DNA of 64,000 nucleotides from NCBI GenBank assembly GCA_014376785.1, contig JACMQW010000082.1:3499-67498 (forward strand). Direction: 5' to 3'. The notes beneath the pieces were generated by a model, which was not told the origin of the DNA, made no database searches, and saw nothing but the letters and a program-made list of their open reading frames with translations. Shown here in pieces: positions 39,825 to 47,098 of the stretch (the stretch's first letter is position 1; every line of letters starts with the position of its first letter). The translations under genes and the position numbers were made by a program. The stretch comes from Oligoflexia bacterium (GTDB lineage Bacteria; Bdellovibrionota; UBA1018).

Positions 39825-40211
39825 GTGCAACACCTTTTAATCGTAGAAGATTCGATTGAATTCCAAAAAATTATTTCAAGGGTACTAAACGACTACGAAC
39901 TCACTTCCGCCTTAAGCGCTGAAGAGGCATGGACCCAATTGGGCACTGCAAAGTTCGCCCTTGTTCTGTTGGATATCTCACTGCCGGGTAAAGACGGCTA
40001 TTCTCTTTTGGCAGATATGCAGGCGTCCGAACTTTTTAGAAATATCCCGGTGATTTGTTTAACGGGAAAAGTCGCGACTTCCGACCGAGTAAATGCATTT
40101 CGGCTCGGCGCAGATGATTTCATCGAAAAGCCTTTCGATCATCAGGAACTGAAAGTGCGGGTTGCCGCGAAACTAGCGAAGTCGCTTTCGCGGACTGCTC
40201 ATGACGGATGA
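39825..40211 (+). CDS. single-domain response regulator
   Basis: LIVEDS, LLDISLPGKDG, GADDFIEKPF; probable GTG start. Confidence 0.9.
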   Translation: MQHLLIVEDSIEFQKIISRVLNDYELTSALSAEEAWTQLGTAKFALVLLDISLPGKDGYSLLADMQASELFRNIPVICLTGKVATSDRVNAFRLGADDFIEKPFDHQELKVRVAAKLAKSLSRTAHDG

Positions 40212-42546
40212 TTTAGCGATTTTTTTCGAGGTGTCGCAGCACCTCCTCTGCATAGCGGGAGCAGATGGTTTTCTGAAGCGAGTGAATCCATCCTTTGAAA
40301 GAGTCTTGGGATTTTCAGCGACAGAACTCCTAGCTCGGCCCTATATGGATTTCGTTCTCCCCGAGGATCGGGCAGGAACGCTTGCACACGCCGAAGGGGT
40401 TCCCAGCGAACGTGGAAACTCCGAATTTGAAAACAGATACGTTTGTAAAGACGGCTCTATTCGCCATTTATCTTGGCGGACGACCACCGTGGATGATCGC
40501 ATTCTTTGCATCGCACACGACGTGACAGACGAGAGAGAAAAAGAAAAAAAGACGAAGCAGCTGAATGACGAAGCACTTCGTGAAGCAAAAGAAAGTTTCA
40601 GGCACCTTGCCGAAGCCATGCCCCAAATGGTCTGGAAAACGGACGCAGCTGGGAATCAACTGTACTCGAACGCAAGGTGGAACGAATACACCGGGTCCAA
40701 TCAGAGCGATGAGCAGGATTCGAAATTATGGGAGAACGTCGTCCACCCCGATGATTTCCAAAATTCAATCACGAATTGGACGAGGTCGCTGATATCCGGA
40801 GACAGCTTCGAAATGCAATATAGGCTGCGTAGGGCGATCGATGGCATCTATCGCTGGCACCTTGCGCGCGCGGTTCCCATAAAGGATAGCAATGGCACCA
40901 TCGTTAAATGGTTCGGAACTTTAACCGACATTGATGAGCAGAAACGTTCCGAAGAGGAACTGAGAATAAGTTTAGAAGAATTACGTCGTTCTTCACTGGA
41001 AAAGGTCGAGATACTCAAGCGCGAGAAAGCGGCGCTTGAATCTTCCGATTTAAAATCGGAATTCGTCGCTACGATGAGCCACGAAATTCGGACTCCTTTG
41101 AGTGCCATCATTGGAATGACTCAGGTGTTATTAAAGGGTGAATTAGACGAAGAGCAGGCCGACATCGCAAAGACGATTCTCTTTTCTGCCGAATCGCTTT
41201 CAGGAATCGTGAATGAAATTCTTGATTTCTCTAAAATTGAGTCGGGAAAGATGCCATTAGAAAAAGTTGATTTCGATTTGAAGACTATTCTTTTCGGGGT
41301 GGTTAATGCATCACGATTTGGCGCTGCGGAAAAAGGCATCAAGCTCCAAGTGACCATTCAACCGGAATTAGATACGTGGGTGAGTGGGGATCTCGTGAAG
41401 ATCCGGCAAGTCCTTCATAATTTATTGAGTAACGCGGTGAAATTTACTTCGCAGGGTGAAGTCTGTGTTTCTTTGGAAGCACGAGGCCATTCCGAATCTC
41501 TCCAGTCCCGTATTCGATTTTTGGTAACTGATACGGGAATCGGAATCGCAACCGAGGAGGTTTCTCGCCTTTTCGAACCGTTTGTTCAGGCGGATGCGTC
41601 GATTGCTCGCCGCTTCGGGGGAACGGGCTTAGGACTTTCAATTTGTAAGCGGCTCATTGAGTTGATGGGCGGCGAAATCGGAGTCGAAAGTATACCAGGC
41701 AAAGGATCTCAGTTCTGGTTTGAACTCTCTCTTTCGAAAAGAACAGAAATCACCCAGCATTTTAACTTCGATAGGCCTTCAGAGGGCTCTATCACGGGCA
41801 GAATCCTCGTCGCTGAAGACCACCCGATGAACCAGAAAGTGATTCGGTATCTCTTAAGAAACCTCGGACTTCAGATTGATCTGGTGGCTTCGGGGCGGGA
41901 AGCGGTACTTGCAAATGCGCTGCACCGCTACGACCTCATTCTCATGGACTGTCACATGCCGGACATGGACGGGTATGAAGCGACTCGTGCCATCCGTGCC
42001 CAACCTGGAGATTGCGCGCGCGTTCCGATTTACGCGCTCACCGCAGACGTCCTCCAAAATACTCCCCAGCGGTGCCGTGAGGTCGGAATGAATGGGTATT
42101 TTCAAAAGCCCATCCAAAGCGAAAGACTTTACTCTGTGATCGCTCAGTGCTGCACGAGACCCACGCGCGATCTGATGGAAAATCAGGCTGCGGTATCACC
42201 GTTAGGAAAAGTACCGCCCGATTTCGACCCGGCGGCCCTTCGGGTTTTGGAAAATCTGAATGCCGAGGGTCAGCCTGATATCGTCAGGGAGCTCGTGAAT
42301 GGATTTCACCGCGACACTCCTGCTCATCTCGCGCGGATTTTGGATGCGATAGAACGCCAAGACCGTTTTGCATTGGAACAAGAGGCGCACTCTTTGAAGT
42401 CAGTTTCGGCAGTGCTCGGCGCGATGAATGTTTCAAGGCTTTGTGGACTGCTTGAATTAGAAGCGCAGAGAGAAAGTTCGGTTTGTGCAAAAATGGTCCT
42501 TTCCGAGCTTCATGATTCGTATATTCGTTACTTGGATGAGACCTGA
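40201..42546 (+). CDS. hybrid histidine kinase PAS-PAS-HisKA-HATPase-REC-Hpt
   Basis: MSHEIRTPL, NAVKFT, GGTGLGL, LMDCHMP, AHSLKS. Confidence 0.93.
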   Translation: MTDDLAIFFEVSQHLLCIAGADGFLKRVNPSFERVLGFSATELLARPYMDFVLPEDRAGTLAHAEGVPSERGNSEFENRYVCKDGSIRHLSWRTTTVDDRILCIAHDVTDEREKEKKTKQLNDEALREAKESFRHLAEAMPQMVWKTDAAGNQLYSNARWNEYTGSNQSDEQDSKLWENVVHPDDFQNSITNWTRSLISGDSFEMQYRLRRAIDGIYRWHLARAVPIKDSNGTIVKWFGTLTDIDEQKRSEEELRISLEELRRSSLEKVEILKREKAALESSDLKSEFVATMSHEIRTPLSAIIGMTQVLLKGELDEEQADIAKTILFSAESLSGIVNEILDFSKIESGKMPLEKVDFDLKTILFGVVNASRFGAAEKGIKLQVTIQPELDTWVSGDLVKIRQVLHNLLSNAVKFTSQGEVCVSLEARGHSESLQSRIRFLVTDTGIGIATEEVSRLFEPFVQADASIARRFGGTGLGLSICKRLIELMGGEIGVESIPGKGSQFWFELSLSKRTEITQHFNFDRPSEGSITGRILVAEDHPMNQKVIRYLLRNLGLQIDLVASGREAVLANALHRYDLILMDCHMPDMDGYEATRAIRAQPGDCARVPIYALTADVLQNTPQRCREVGMNGYFQKPIQSERLYSVIAQCCTRPTRDLMENQAAVSPLGKVPPDFDPAALRVLENLNAEGQPDIVRELVNGFHRDTPAHLARILDAIERQDRFALEQEAHSLKSVSAVLGAMNVSRLCGLLELEAQRESSVCAKMVLSELHDSYIRYLDET

Positions 42547-43611: not shown

Positions 43612-43711
43612 CGGTGTCATCCTATTGGCGATTGCCATCGAAAGTTCGATGGATGCTGTTTTGATGAAATGATTTTTACCTTCCGGGTGAGAACCGCTAT
43701 CATGAGAGAGG

Positions 43712-44560
43712 ATGTTTAAAGCAAAGGACGGAACACTTTTCAGTTTATTTGCTCTCGGGGTCGCGGTCGACCAACTCACGAAATTTCTGGGAGAGCGCAT
43801 CCAGGGGCGTCTAGGTCCATTCTCCGTCGAAATGCATCACAATCCTGGGATTTTTCTTCAGTGGCTTGCGACGGAATCAAGCCTCCTCCGCGTCGTTTCA
43901 GTTGCTTGTTTCTACGGTTTCATCCTTTTTATCTATTTTTCTTTGTTGTCGGCACTTTCCCTCCGTCACCAGCAGACGAAAGTCGCCCTCACGCTCTTTC
44001 TTTCTTCGATTACCGGAAACGCGGTCGATCGTATCGGGAATGGGGAAGTGCGAGATTTCTTGGTGCTTCGAATCGCTGACCGTCTTTTTTATGCAAATGT
44101 CGCGGATATCCTGATGTGGGTTTCCCTCGCCTTACTCGTGGCTTCAGCTTGGATTTACCGGCGGGATTTTTTTCCGGAAAAAAATTCGCGAATAAAGCAC
44201 GTCCTCAGCAGAAGTTATCAGTATGCTTGGTCAGCAAAAGTAGCATTGGCTTCATTCTGTTCGTTTGTGACTTTAATGCTTTTTTCGGTGACCTACTTTC
44301 ATGCGGCCGAAGATTTTAGATTCATCGCATGGGGTTTGGTGATTGGGATCTTTTTTAGTGCTTTCACAGCATTTGCGGCGATTCGCTTTTCGCATCGGAG
44401 CGCAGGCGCGCTGTACGCTTTTGAAAAATACGTCGAAAAATTATTAGAGGGTAAAACAAACGAGCCATTTTCCCTGCGTGAAAACGACGAGCATCGGCAA
44501 CTCGTACCACTCGCAAAAAAACTCAGAGCACACTTCATTCAAAAGGGAATTCAACGATGA
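43712..44560 (+). CDS. signal peptidase II (LspA)-like protein with C-terminal 2TM + HAMP-like extension
   Basis: DQLTK, N.G, GNAVDR, VRDF, NVAD; tail SHRSAGALYAFEK...LRENDE. Confidence 0.8.
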   Translation: MFKAKDGTLFSLFALGVAVDQLTKFLGERIQGRLGPFSVEMHHNPGIFLQWLATESSLLRVVSVACFYGFILFIYFSLLSALSLRHQQTKVALTLFLSSITGNAVDRIGNGEVRDFLVLRIADRLFYANVADILMWVSLALLVASAWIYRRDFFPEKNSRIKHVLSRSYQYAWSAKVALASFCSFVTLMLFSVTYFHAAEDFRFIAWGLVIGIFFSAFTAFAAIRFSHRSAGALYAFEKYVEKLLEGKTNEPFSLRENDEHRQLVPLAKKLRAHFIQKGIQR

Positions 44561-45711
44561 AAATTTGGCAACGGTTTCGAGTCGCGATTATTGGGCTCTT
44601 TGGTATCACCGCGATCTTCGCGGTTTTCCAAAACTGTGGGACCGGTACAGTGGGGACTGGCGCGAGTGGGAAAGCCTCATTGGATAATGGATACACCACT
44701 GGTACCACGGGCCTTTACCTTTCTCTCAGTGCATCGAGCTATGTCTTCGCAGCTTCGAGCTCGACCCAGAACCAAACCTTTACGCTCTCGAATCCATCCA
44801 GAGAATTAGCCCGCACTCTTTCCGTTTCGCTCTCATCAAGCACTTCCGCATTCACCCTCACCGGTGACACCTGCACGAATGCCAGCCTTCCTGCGGGTGG
44901 GGCGTGTGCATTCCAAATCTCGTACGTGAATTCCAGCGCTCAGACGGTGAACGGCTCGATTTCCATCTACTACGCAAACGCGGCGAATCTCGTGCAGCCC
45001 CCCATTGCGATCTCGCTCACGGGATCTGGTAGGACCGTCATCACGACCAACACGACCACGACCGCCTCGTCGAATGGCTCTCCGGGGAGCTACGTGGCTA
45101 GTACGGGGTTCACCCTGGGAACCGGCTCATTGAATAAATTCAGTTCGACCGCGACCTATCAAAAATCCGCGCTTTCCTGCGGAAACATCACGAAGCGCGA
45201 CGTCTGTGCATCATCCACTCCCGCAAGCTTTGATGGAGCAAACTGTCATGTCGGAGCGCCTCCGTGGGGAACCGGCTTTATTTACGGTGGTAATTTCTAC
45301 TATCCACCTCACGCGGGAACTCCCTGCGCTTCGAACCACTCGTTCGATGGAAGGAACTGCGTTTTCGCAAGCGCGTTTGGAAATTCACCTTTTATCTACA
45401 ATAATCATTTCTATTTCACTCCGACGACGCGGGTGATTCCCGGCTTTTACAGCGGAATTTGCCCATTAGGATCCATTTTCGACGGCGCGAACTGCTACGC
45501 GGGAAACGTTCCTACGGGCACCGGTCAGGTCTCCACGGCTCGTTTTACCTACGATGCGAAGGCGGGCGTCACTCCCTGTGAAAGTAGCAACGGCGACTAT
45601 TTCGACGGAAGTCGTTGTGTTTATTCGAATATTCCAACGGGTTGGAGCGGGTTTGTCTACCAAAGTAAGTTCTACTTTTACGCTCAAGCTTCCCGAGCCT
45701 GTGTGCCTTAA
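44557..45711 (+). CDS. FQNC-type lipoprotein with Ig-like domain and Cys/aromatic repeats
   Basis: Signal ending AVFQNC; FTLTGDTC...C Ig-like segment; four FDGxxC repeats. Confidence 0.8.
   Translation: MKIWQRFRVAIIGLFGITAIFAVFQNCGTGTVGTGASGKASLDNGYTTGTTGLYLSLSASSYVFAASSSTQNQTFTLSNPSRELARTLSVSLSSSTSAFTLTGDTCTNASLPAGGACAFQISYVNSSAQTVNGSISIYYANAANLVQPPIAISLTGSGRTVITTNTTTTASSNGSPGSYVASTGFTLGTGSLNKFSSTATYQKSALSCGNITKRDVCASSTPASFDGANCHVGAPPWGTGFIYGGNFYYPPHAGTPCASNHSFDGRNCVFASAFGNSPFIYNNHFYFTPTTRVIPGFYSGICPLGSIFDGANCYAGNVPTGTGQVSTARFTYDAKAGVTPCESSNGDYFDGSRCVYSNIPTGWSGFVYQSKFYFYAQASRACVP
45205..45680 (+). repeat. four intragenic protein repeats C..(S/I/Y)FDGxxC...F(I/V)Y...FY
   Basis: FDGANC, FDGRNC, FDGANC and FDGSRC units in the 44557..45711 product. 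Confidence 0.8.
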
Positions 45712-45863
45712 TAGGGACGAAGTCGAGGGAGTGTGCTAGCCTGAGGACATGAACCTTTGCTTTTTCTGTAAGCGCGAACATTCGGTGGCCGTGTGTGAAA
45801 CCTGCAAGCGACACGTTTGCATCCAATGCCAAGATAACCACAACTGTTACCGCCGAGATTAAT

Positions 45864-46184
45864 ATGTCATCCCATTCTCACCCTTCTTCCGCACAGCAAG
45901 CCGTTCCCGCTCAGCCCGAAAATTCCTTTCGCGTGACTTTAGAGACCTTAAGTTCGAAACCGCGGATCGACCAGGTGCTTCTCGAAGCACTTCGGGGGCA
46001 AAGCCGGAACCCCAATTTGAAGCGCATTTCGCGGACCGAATTCAAGGAACTCTTCAAGAAAAAGAAAATCCTGATCAAGGGCCAGCCGGCCACTCCTTCT
46101 TCCTCACTGGCGAGTGGAGTGACTCACGTCGACATCCTAGGTTATTCGGAAAATCCGAGCCCGGATGATCCGACTCTCCGCTAG
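45864..46184 (+). CDS. small hypothetical protein, S4-like RNA-binding pattern
   Basis: RIDQVL....ISRTEFKELF..KKILIKG pattern; start set at ATG 45864. Confidence 0.6.
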   Translation: MSSHSHPSSAQQAVPAQPENSFRVTLETLSSKPRIDQVLLEALRGQSRNPNLKRISRTEFKELFKKKKILIKGQPATPSSSLASGVTHVDILGYSENPSPDDPTLR

Positions 46185-47098
46185 AGTCGGCCTTTTTCCC
46201 GCAGCACCCGAACCAACATCGGTTCTACTGGGAAATCGCTTAAGAGCGACCCAAGCCACTCGCTCGCTGCAGGATTTGGGAAATCCACTTTCTCAGCTAA
46301 AATGAGCTCATTCTTCATCGAGTGCTCCCAGCCCGTGAGCTCGGTGACGGTGACTTTATAGCCGAGGCTTTCGAGCACGAGCGCGCGGATCACGTTGGTT
46401 AGGTGGCTGCCGAATTCACGAGAGTGGAGCGGGTGCCGCCAGAGCTGCCAAACGCCTGTCGAGTTTGCGGCCGCACCGTTTTCTTCTTCTGATTGGAAAT
46501 CGTCCCCCGAATTTCGCGGACGAACGGCTTTCAAGAGCCGTGAGACCTCGGCTTGGCAGCAAGGCACCAGCGCAATCGCCGCCGCATTTTTTTCGAGCGC
46601 AAGGAGGATGGCTTCGTCGGTGGCAGTGTCGCAGGCGTGGAGGGCAACGAGGAGGTCAACCTCACCTGGATCGGCGTCACGAATGGACGCATCGATGAAT
46701 TCCATCCGATCAAACCCGGTTTCTTTCGCAAGACCGCGAGCACGGGCGACCAGTTCCGGTCGAGATTCAATATTGCTTATTTTTCCGCGTCTGAGCGGGC
46801 CCACCCAAAGATCATAAAGCAGAAAGCCTAAGTAACTCTTTCCCGATCCCACATCGACGAGGCGAGGTTCGGTTTTTTTAGCATAGAGTTTTTCAAGCAC
46901 CGGCAAGAGGAGGCGAGTGAAATGGTAAATTTGTTTCAACTTTCGACGCGCGTCTTGGTTCAACTTGCCATCCCGTGTGAGCAGGTGGAGTTCTTTTAAG
47001 AGAGTCGGATTCTGTTCTGTCCAGAGAGTTTCGACGTCGCTCTTCACCAGTTTCTTTGCCCGTTCCGCGGCATCGTCTTTCAAGGATGGGTCGTTCAT
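46181..47098 (-). CDS. SAM-dependent methyltransferase (Methyltransf_32-like)
   Basis: VDVGSGKSYLGF, ALHACDTATD, VPCCQ, EHSMKN. Confidence 0.88.
   Translation of the reverse strand: MNDPSLKDDAAERAKKLVKSDVETLWTEQNPTLLKELHLLTRDGKLNQDARRKLKQIYHFTRLLLPVLEKLYAKKTEPRLVDVGSGKSYLGFLLYDLWVGPLRRGKISNIESRPELVARARGLAKETGFDRMEFIDASIRDADPGEVDLLVALHACDTATDEAILLALEKNAAAIALVPCCQAEVSRLLKAVRPRNSGDDFQSEEENGAAANSTGVWQLWRHPLHSREFGSHLTNVIRALVLESLGYKVTVTELTGWEHSMKNELILAEKVDFPNPAASEWLGSLLSDFPVEPMLVRVLREKGRL

Follow-up and report, generated by a model that had tools for sequence, protein, structure and literature searches.

A 64,000-nucleotide stretch of the genome of an Oligoflexia bacterium from the phylum Bdellovibrionota (GenBank assembly GCA_014376785.1, contig JACMQW010000082.1, positions 3,499 to 67,498; referred to here as the window) encodes an extended form of the lipoprotein signal peptidase, signal peptidase II (LspA), in which an LspA core is fused to a whole module of two transmembrane (TM) helices and a HAMP domain (2TM-HAMP). 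Judged from sequence comparisons, the LspA-2TM-HAMP fusion is a distinct and widespread subfamily of peptidase A8; literature searches turned up neither an LspA-HAMP fusion nor an FQNC lipobox. The gene is translationally coupled to a second gene, ORF B (ORF, open reading frame), encoding a putative surface lipoprotein with a signal peptide that ends in F-Q-N-C. LspA cleaves diacylglyceryl-prolipoprotein before the cysteine at position +1 and is inhibited by globomycin, and the usual picture of lipoprotein maturation is of one constitutive pathway that relies on a single signal peptidase II and a lipobox of small residues, with the canonical pattern [LVI]-[ASTVI]-[GAS]-C. The reading that we consider somewhat better than an even bet is that the extended LspA is a signal peptidase II specialised in non-canonical lipoboxes, a cleavage specificity suggested by the uniqueness of the FQNC signal in the genome, translational coupling, pairing with unrelated cargo in relatives, and one-way co-occurrence across the phylum. 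The link to FQNC signals appears real but partial.

The LspA core and its 2TM-HAMP tail

The features that carry the argument, all on the forward strand of the window, are as follows.

43712..44560, +, extended LspA gene, 282 amino acids (LspA core plus 2TM-HAMP module; ORF with a PF01252 match)
43748..44149, +, Peptidase A8 core, residues 13-146, four TM helices and a beta-cradle (Pfam, Foldseek, and PDB profile matches)
44054..44056, +, codon of catalytic Asp115 (VRDF), invariant in 42/42 aligned rows and also in 41 extended and 17 canonical sequences
44105..44107, +, codon of catalytic Asp132 (NVAD), invariant in the 42-row and the 41 + 17-sequence alignments
44177..44557, +, 2TM-HAMP module, residues ~156-282 (hhalign to stand-alone 2TM-HAMP proteins; model helices)
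44557..45711, +, ORF B, 384 amino acids, an orphan and putative surface lipoprotein (Ig-like region and Cys-rich repeats)
44557..44637, +, ORF B signal peptide up to Cys27: n-region KIWQRFR, h-region, F-Q-N-C (read from the sequence)

The extended LspA matched the Pfam Peptidase_A8 family (PF01252) over residues 13-146 with 55 bits against a cut-off of 25 (57.5 bits in a genome-wide search) but fell below the cut-off of the NCBIfam lspA equivalog (TIGR00077; 39 versus 73.95 bits). Its AF2 model (pLDDT 92, pTM 0.84) consists of an LspA core followed by extra helices. The top Foldseek matches of the model were the LspA structures 5DIR and 6RYO/6RYP (E 2e-6 to 3e-5, probability 1.00, TM score on the target 0.65-0.70), and the confident matches were exclusively LspA structures, spanning the first ~150 residues; a PDB profile search returned 9EMZ, 5DIR, and 6RYO at E values of about 1e-23. 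The protein thus resembles canonical LspA (5DIR of P. aeruginosa, 6RYO/6RYP of S. aureus, and 9EMZ) in the fold of residues ~1-150, in the Asp dyad, and in the Asn, Gly, Arg, and Lys positions. In an alignment of 42 rows, comprising 40 family members, the window protein, and the canonical LspA of the same genome, N44, N103, D115, N129, D132, and D259 were invariant. In the extended family D20, K24, G46, G102, and D106 were present at frequencies of at least 90% and R107 at 83%, and D20, K24, N44, G46, N103, D106, R107, D115, F116, N129, A131, and D132 were conserved as in canonical LspA. The signal peptidase II motifs and the two candidate catalytic aspartates (VRDF and NVAD) on which the original prediction was built are therefore borne out by the PF01252 match and the invariance of D115 and D132, and the core is, as far as its residues tell, catalytically intact.

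The same genome carries a canonical LspA of 179 amino acids on another contig (G000:C67), which adjoins a LolE-like permease gene and matches the Pfam A8 family with 107 bits. Since this match is the stronger one, the window gene is a paralog and not the housekeeping enzyme; the extended lspA is not the only lspA of the genome, in line with its original description as a paralog.

Around the conserved residues, a comparison of 41 extended with 17 canonical sequences from the phylum revealed several family-specific changes. Near the active site, the canonical N-x-G-A-A-F is replaced by bulky hydrophobic residues in the extended family, GG-A-x-GN has become GG-I-x-GN, and D-x-A-I has become D-x-F-Q-W. 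These substitutions beside the active-site motifs are compatible with an altered substrate pocket. They could also alter the binding of inhibitors, as would be expected if the extended protein were a self-resistance or drug-tolerant LspA copy directed against LspA-targeting natural products. Extra lspA copies do serve this purpose in a producer: Myxococcus xanthus has the additional, plain-length paralogs lspA3 and lspA4 in its myxovirescin/TA cluster, where they provide antibiotic self-resistance. The two systems share the presence of more than one LspA per genome, a specialised role being that of the M. xanthus copies, but the window copy is fused to a 2TM-HAMP module, lies outside any biosynthetic cluster, and is linked to a signal variant. 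Its flanks in the window are free of biosynthetic genes (its neighbours are an oxidoreductase gene, ORF B, and a small ORF), entire families of the phylum have the extended LspA as a fixed feature among differing neighbours, and self-resistance would leave the FQNC pairing unexplained, so that we regard this explanation as very improbable.

Canonical LspA is a single-domain protein of ~160-180 amino acids, whereas ~127 of the 282 residues of the extended protein belong to the fused module, which adds two TM helices and a HAMP module at the C terminus. The module begins with an N-x-R...Q motif, followed by TM5, a short loop, TM6 running into the first amphipathic helix of the HAMP domain (AS1; SHRSAGALYAFEKY...), a connector, and the second amphipathic helix (AS2; LRENDE...). 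The helices of the model (167-197, 203-245, and 264-277, with a loop at 246-263) follow this TM-AS1, connector, AS2 arrangement, and the family shares the motif SHRxAGPxYAFE...LRxGD...L, in looser form SHRxAGPxYxF...G...LRxxD...L; at the start of AS1 the window protein reads AGALY where the family reads AGPxY, P233 being present in at least 90% of the rows and missing in the window protein. Used by itself as a query, the tail found separate ORFs of ~150-190 amino acids in this genome and its relatives. When columns 156-291 of the family alignment were compared by hhalign with nine such stand-alone 2TM proteins, they aligned over 136 columns with a probability of 99.7% (E 1.3e-25), and six of the nine proteins match PF00672 at E values of ≤0.01 (best E 7.8e-8, 33 bits versus a cut-off of 25). 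The window tail itself (residues 153-282) gave no direct match to the Pfam HAMP family PF00672 even at E values of ≤10. The description of the tail as HAMP-like thus holds through its homology to HAMP-matching 2TM proteins and not through a direct Pfam match, and these profile comparisons identify the tail as a complete 2TM-HAMP module that is fused to LspA and also occurs free-standing.

The free 2TM-HAMP-only proteins, of ~146-194 amino acids, occur in this genome (L015:1825-2310, reverse strand, corresponding to G000:C29) and in many relatives (also L011 and L052-L059). They are laid out as N-x-R...INPxxQLKF, TM, loop, TM, SHRIAGP...LRKxD and carry no output domain. The free gene of this genome adjoins a cation-efflux-like membrane gene.

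In sensor kinases and chemoreceptors, HAMP domains (PF00672) convert signals and form a parallel four-helix bundle in a homodimer that is coupled to a downstream output domain. The tail resembles them in having a TM helix that leads into AS1, a connector, and AS2. It differs from them in that no output domain follows and in that the input side is an enzyme rather than a periplasmic sensor domain. The role of HAMP elsewhere, together with the free-standing occurrence of the same module in many relatives, would be consistent with a sensor or regulator in which the LspA-like domain binds lipoprotein precursors, or else a ligand that is a lipid or a peptide, and HAMP relays the signal to a partner, for instance in envelope-stress sensing. 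However, the forms of 270-320 amino acids lack an output domain after HAMP, and the long forms of 445-646 amino acids carry an AhpC/TSA-redoxin, class I methyltransferase, or Peptidase_S74 domain after the module and not a kinase or cyclase; no signalling output domain is added in any of these long forms (P0025, P0033, P0049, P0052, P0063, P0074, P0082, P0097, P0099, P0120-P0122, P0135, and P0147), of which P0025 and P0033 have a C-terminal half with no assigned domain. The strict conservation of the catalytic Asp and Asn residues argues for catalysis, and a purely sensory role seems improbable. A complex prediction with two copies of the tail (residues 150-282) scored 0.11 against a mark of 0.42, a result that is neutral on dimerisation.

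ORF B and its FQNC signal

The two ORFs of the original prediction were recovered at 43712-44560 and 44557-45711, and the overlap between them was found as it had been described. The junction reads ...CAA CGA TGA, with the ATG of ORF B lying inside the stop of the extended LspA gene (cgATGa) and an AAGGGA sequence ~10 nucleotides 5' of the ORF B start, so that the overlapping stop and start couple the two genes translationally. ORF B begins with MKIWQRFRVAIIGLFGITAIFAVFQNC|GTGT and has a positive n-region, an h-region, and a Cys at +1 (Cys27, codon 44635-44637), followed by a Gly/Thr/Ser-rich linker; the FQN-C signal end reported for the coupled downstream protein is accordingly present, and it fails the canonical lipobox pattern.

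In the genome as a whole the signal stands alone. A census of lipoboxes gave LSGC 12 times, LSSC 9 times, and LTGC 8 times, with FSGC also common, and G, S, or A occupied position -1 in 224/378 candidates. Among these 378 crude signal candidates N was at -1 in 8, and FQNC occurred once, on ORF B. Three FQNC sites lie in long open frames of this genome, of which one, that of ORF B, falls in a signal, and ORF B was the sole match of the genome to an FQNC-signal profile (described below) at E values of ≤0.05 (E 0.0099). The statement that FQNC is frequent in Bdellovibrionota is therefore correct for some families of the phylum but not for this genome. The part of the Bdellovibrio literature that was consulted mentions lipoboxes and does not state their sequence.

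The remainder of ORF B gives few clues to its function. A word-indexed search returned only ORF B itself; a weak match to choice-of-anchor D reached 28.8 bits against a cut-off of 45; and ASH/HYDIN-type immunoglobulin (Ig) domains were the leads among structural matches in the Atlas, all of which fell below the 0.9 bar for a lead. The Atlas model of the protein is poor (pLDDT 0.52). The C-terminal half (45150-45711, forward strand) contains about four Cys-rich repeats of ~45 amino acids that are named by no library and share the motif FDG-x-NC ... P-x-G ... F-Y ... F-Y-(Y/F).

ORF B would be exported by Sec, and Cys27 would be diacylglyceryl modified by one of two Lgt enzymes. As the probable substrate of the coupled extended LspA, it would then be cleaved between Asn26 and Cys27; the housekeeping LspA would be ill suited to this bond, given its preference for small residues at -1. 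On the cytoplasmic side, the HAMP module may bring about dimerisation of the enzyme or serve as a gate for its activity.

Two full-length Lgt proteins (PF01790) are indeed encoded in the genome (G000:C27:30682-31413, reverse strand, and G000:C1:7017-7757, forward strand; 222 and 215 bits). The second Lgt was considered as a marker of a second route and was rejected as such, two copies being the norm across the phylum with or without extended LspA (read by eye and not tallied). For the second maturation route that had been proposed, an extra LspA beside the canonical copy stands, and a complete route gets no support from Lgt because two copies are usual regardless of extended LspA. Within family f10, two Lgt copies were present in 4/4 carriers of extended LspA versus 2/8 noncarriers.

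Distribution across the phylum and gene neighbourhoods

An exhaustive HMMER search of cluster representatives gave 363 matches at E values of ≤1e-3, 163 at ≤1e-10, and 5 at ≤1e-30, and most family members were 270-320 amino acids long and aligned across nearly the whole query. Among 301 genomes sampled from the phylum, carriers were defined as those with a full-length extended LspA for which the best E value to the family profile was <1e-40. By this definition 109/301 genomes carry the extended form, nearly always alongside canonical LspA. At E values of ≤1e-10 the family profile matched 300/301 genomes, the best E values of noncarriers (about 1e-13 to 1e-30) being in the range of the canonical-length matches listed. 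The extended form is fixed in families f21 (35/35), f25 (18/18), and f31 (6/6), mixed in f22 (29/67), f10 (4/12), and f2 (2/5), and rare in f1, the family of the window genome (4/35). In a quick tree, which omitted two loci where no ORF passed the filter, the window copy grouped with the f10 lineage (SH-aLRT 94, on a long branch) and not with copies from its own genus, which formed a separate, well-supported clade.

A first proxy for FQNC signals, raw counts of the DNA pattern TTYCARAAYTGY against a backwards control, suggested an FQNC excess in noncarrier families and no link within families. It was dropped in favour of a signal-peptide profile because the excess in noncarriers did not represent signal peptides: in eight noncarrier genomes chosen for the highest DNA excess, 0/60 sampled FQNC-coding sites were in signals. 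The corresponding counts were 14/29 in two f21 carriers and 8/30 in five f25, f31, f33, and f34 carriers; five f22 carriers had 2/30 sites flagged as signals, both of which look false by eye.

The signal-peptide profile has 26 columns and was built from 22 real FQNC signals. In a trial it gave 58 matches at E values of ≤0.05 in genome G315, one in the window genome, and none below 0.3 in two negatives. With an FQNC family defined as at least three profile matches or a best E value of <1e-3 among up to 28 scored candidates per genome, such a family was detected in 65/109 carriers of extended LspA and in 0/192 noncarriers. Twenty noncarriers had one weak profile match each, and none of the best five was a true FQNC signal. 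The co-occurrence is thus one-directional: the FQNC family is found only with extended LspA, and extended LspA is often found without it.

These signals also bear on whether ORF B is a lipoprotein at all. A possible A-x-A-like site (I-F-A) precedes VFQNC, so that signal peptidase I could instead cut after IFA|VF, or the signal could be kept as an anchor, in which case FQNC would be incidental or differently used and the extended LspA would act elsewhere; the failure of FQNC to match the canonical lipobox and the poor model of ORF B fit such a reading. In FQNC-rich genomes, however, the motif ends dozens of typical n-h signals (the 58 matches in G315 among them) and, as is the case in lipoproteins, lies immediately before a linker of small or polar residues. 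All 22 signals from which the profile was built share the Cys, and ORF B itself has the linker after Cys27. We therefore consider it quite unlikely that ORF B is not a lipoprotein, while the IFA|VF site remains a point against its cleavage by the extended LspA.

The pairing seen in the window recurs in two f10 genomes from the taxonomic order of the window genome, G285 and G086, in which a same-strand gene immediately downstream of extended lspA starts with a signal ending in ...VFSLFQNC|GRT or ...IFTVFQNC|GRT. The downstream protein was the sole FQNC protein detected in each of the two genomes. The two partners are 56% identical to each other, and their sole alignment with ORF B at an E value below 1 covers residues 1-28 (E 0.01); by these alignments, the cargo is unrelated to ORF B and only the signal peptide is alike. 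A third genome, G115, has two FQNC proteins elsewhere in the genome, both with unusual n-regions (RWRRFLVQFRRN and RWKRMLVTARKN) that resemble LRLWVHYRRN of the G285 partner and KIWQRFRV of ORF B; the n-region of ORF B also resembles that of the G086 partner.

Related or odd signals occur at other loci. Directly downstream of the extended LspA in G234 (L242:1-2017, reverse strand) is a protein with the signal ...ILFVFQNGTC, and at L257 (G263:C52) a signal ends in ...VFQN followed by PAAAQRAC instead of C; both may be variants of the FQNC signal. In f22 carriers the gene just upstream of extended lspA has an odd box, GGYTH-C or LYNQ-C. This gene is the first of a conserved trio (L016, L017, L019, and L023) in which a ~450-amino-acid protein with a ...GGYTH-C or ...LYNQ-C signal is followed 3 bp later, on the same strand, by the extended LspA and then by a ~387-amino-acid secreted protein with a CxxCH motif. 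The GGYTHC pattern was unique per genome in G101 and G305, the two tested, a result that carries little weight because such a 5-mer is expected to be rare. ORF B shows no similarity to either the YTHC protein or the G234 partner.

In the window, the signals for a separate transcription unit are weak ones.

43635..43652, +, terminator-like hairpin 3' of the upstream oxidoreductase gene (consensus match; 5 sites versus 3.5 expected, weak)
43675..43703, +, promoter-like site just 5' of extended lspA (9/12 match to the consensus, weak)

Promoter-like sites numbered 4 versus 1.8 expected in shuffled sequences. The hairpin after the oxidoreductase gene suggests that extended lspA and ORF B form their own transcription unit. 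A 129-amino-acid ORF with no Pfam match (45795-46184) follows on the same strand 84 nucleotides past ORF B and may be a third gene of the unit; a terminator-like hairpin lies at 46170-46190. Two genes upstream of extended lspA, a gene at 40201-42546 (forward strand) encodes a hybrid sensor kinase of 781 amino acids with a kinase core, a receiver, and an Hpt-like end, as read from the translation.

A proposed specialised peptidase and the alternatives

Several observations weigh against a specialised FQNC peptidase. No FQNC family was detectable in 44/109 carriers, including all 29 f22 carriers as well as G002, G005, G252, G030, G036, and G052. The 65 FQNC-rich genomes belong to families with a fixed extended LspA, namely f21, f25, f31, and small relatives, and because the co-occurrence is clumped in a few related families, the association may rest on one to three evolutionary events. 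The profile was itself built from carriers, missed the G285 partner, and scored up to 28 candidates per genome, and the lipobox census and signal calls are crude heuristics and not the output of a trained predictor. The noncarrier G042, one of the five with the best weak profile matches, has a plausible LSLQNC|APG signal (L249, G042:C6:66951-67022, reverse strand), so that Asn at -1 appears possible without extended LspA. Neighbourhoods also vary: an upstream substrate-binding protein (SBP) gene with a canonical lipobox is co-directional in f25-type carriers, a divergent PBP4-like gene is the neighbour in f21 carriers, G252 has secreted neighbours of the signal peptidase I type, and extended lspA adjoins a gene like those for outer membrane proteins in the window's own genus. 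The window protein departs from the family consensus at several positions: the near-invariant P of SHRxAGP is replaced by A, G99 by S, and F128 by A. The FQNC link is, in short, not universal in the family, is drawn from few independent lineages, and is sequence based throughout.

These points are what would be expected if the extended LspA were a generalist or back-up paralog acting on ordinary prolipoproteins, perhaps conditioned by HAMP, with the FQNC adjacency reflecting shared ancestry or hitch-hiking in a cassette. The fully canonical catalytic core, the carriers that lack FQNC signals, the canonical lipobox of the co-directional upstream gene in f25-type carriers, and the phylogenetic clumping all favour such an enzyme. 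It would not account for the presence of the genome's unique FQNC signal on the coupled neighbour, for the same pairing with unrelated cargo in G285 and G086, for the absence of an FQNC family from all 192 noncarriers, or for the family-specific substitutions around the active-site motifs, and we judge it unlikely, although less so than the sensory and non-lipoprotein explanations. Of the dedicated FQNC peptidase that had been predicted, the co-occurrence and the pairing in G285 and G086 stand, and an exclusive dedication is not supported for the family as a whole, given the carriers that lack FQNC signals.

A specialised signal peptidase II has parallels in dedicated pairs of processing enzyme and signal, such as class B sortase with NPQTN, exosortase with PEP-CTERM, and rhombosortase with GlyGly-CTERM. 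As in these pairs, a paralog of a processing enzyme co-occurs with a signal variant and adjoins its presumed substrate in low-copy genomes, while the cargo varies. The differences are that the FQNC signal is N-terminal and of the lipoprotein type, that the enzyme belongs to another class, and that the co-occurrence is one-way only. Relative to canonical LspA, the extended form is set apart as a second copy that falls below the TIGR00077 cut-off and is associated with a non-canonical lipobox.

A broader version of this reading, possible but in our view doubtful, is that LspA-2TM-HAMP processes a lipoprotein class of its own, the maturation of which is switched by HAMP, for example, during prey contact in predatory relatives. 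The signal of this class would combine a W-x-R-F/Y-R n-region with an aromatic-polar-N/H/Q-Cys box (FQNC, YTHC, and YNQC).

A probable ortholog in Bdellovibrio bacteriovorus, Bd3246, was matched by annotation and not by sequence. In mini Tn-seq (transposon sequencing) experiments its fitness was 0.0095 with planktonic E. coli and 0.018 with an E. coli biofilm as prey, compared with 1.27 for planktonic V. cholerae and 0.26 for a V. cholerae biofilm (PMC6561027, supplement S4; the main text of that paper is silent on Bd3246). If Bd3246 is indeed the ortholog, the paralog is not dispensable on E. coli prey, and the strong fitness defect would offer a ready experimental handle.

If the extended LspA is a specialised peptidase, programs that predict lipoproteins would overlook entire sets of surface proteins in the phylum, as the 58 FQNC signals of one relative illustrate. 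The specificity of signal peptidase II would then be re-tunable by few changes near the active site, a property relevant to LspA inhibitors, and lipoprotein processing could be regulated. Should the FQNC, YTHC, and YNQC signals prove to define a separate class, the fusion would represent a branch of the Lgt-LspA-Lnt pathway that is regulated and specific to one class of substrate, in a pathway that is otherwise constitutive.

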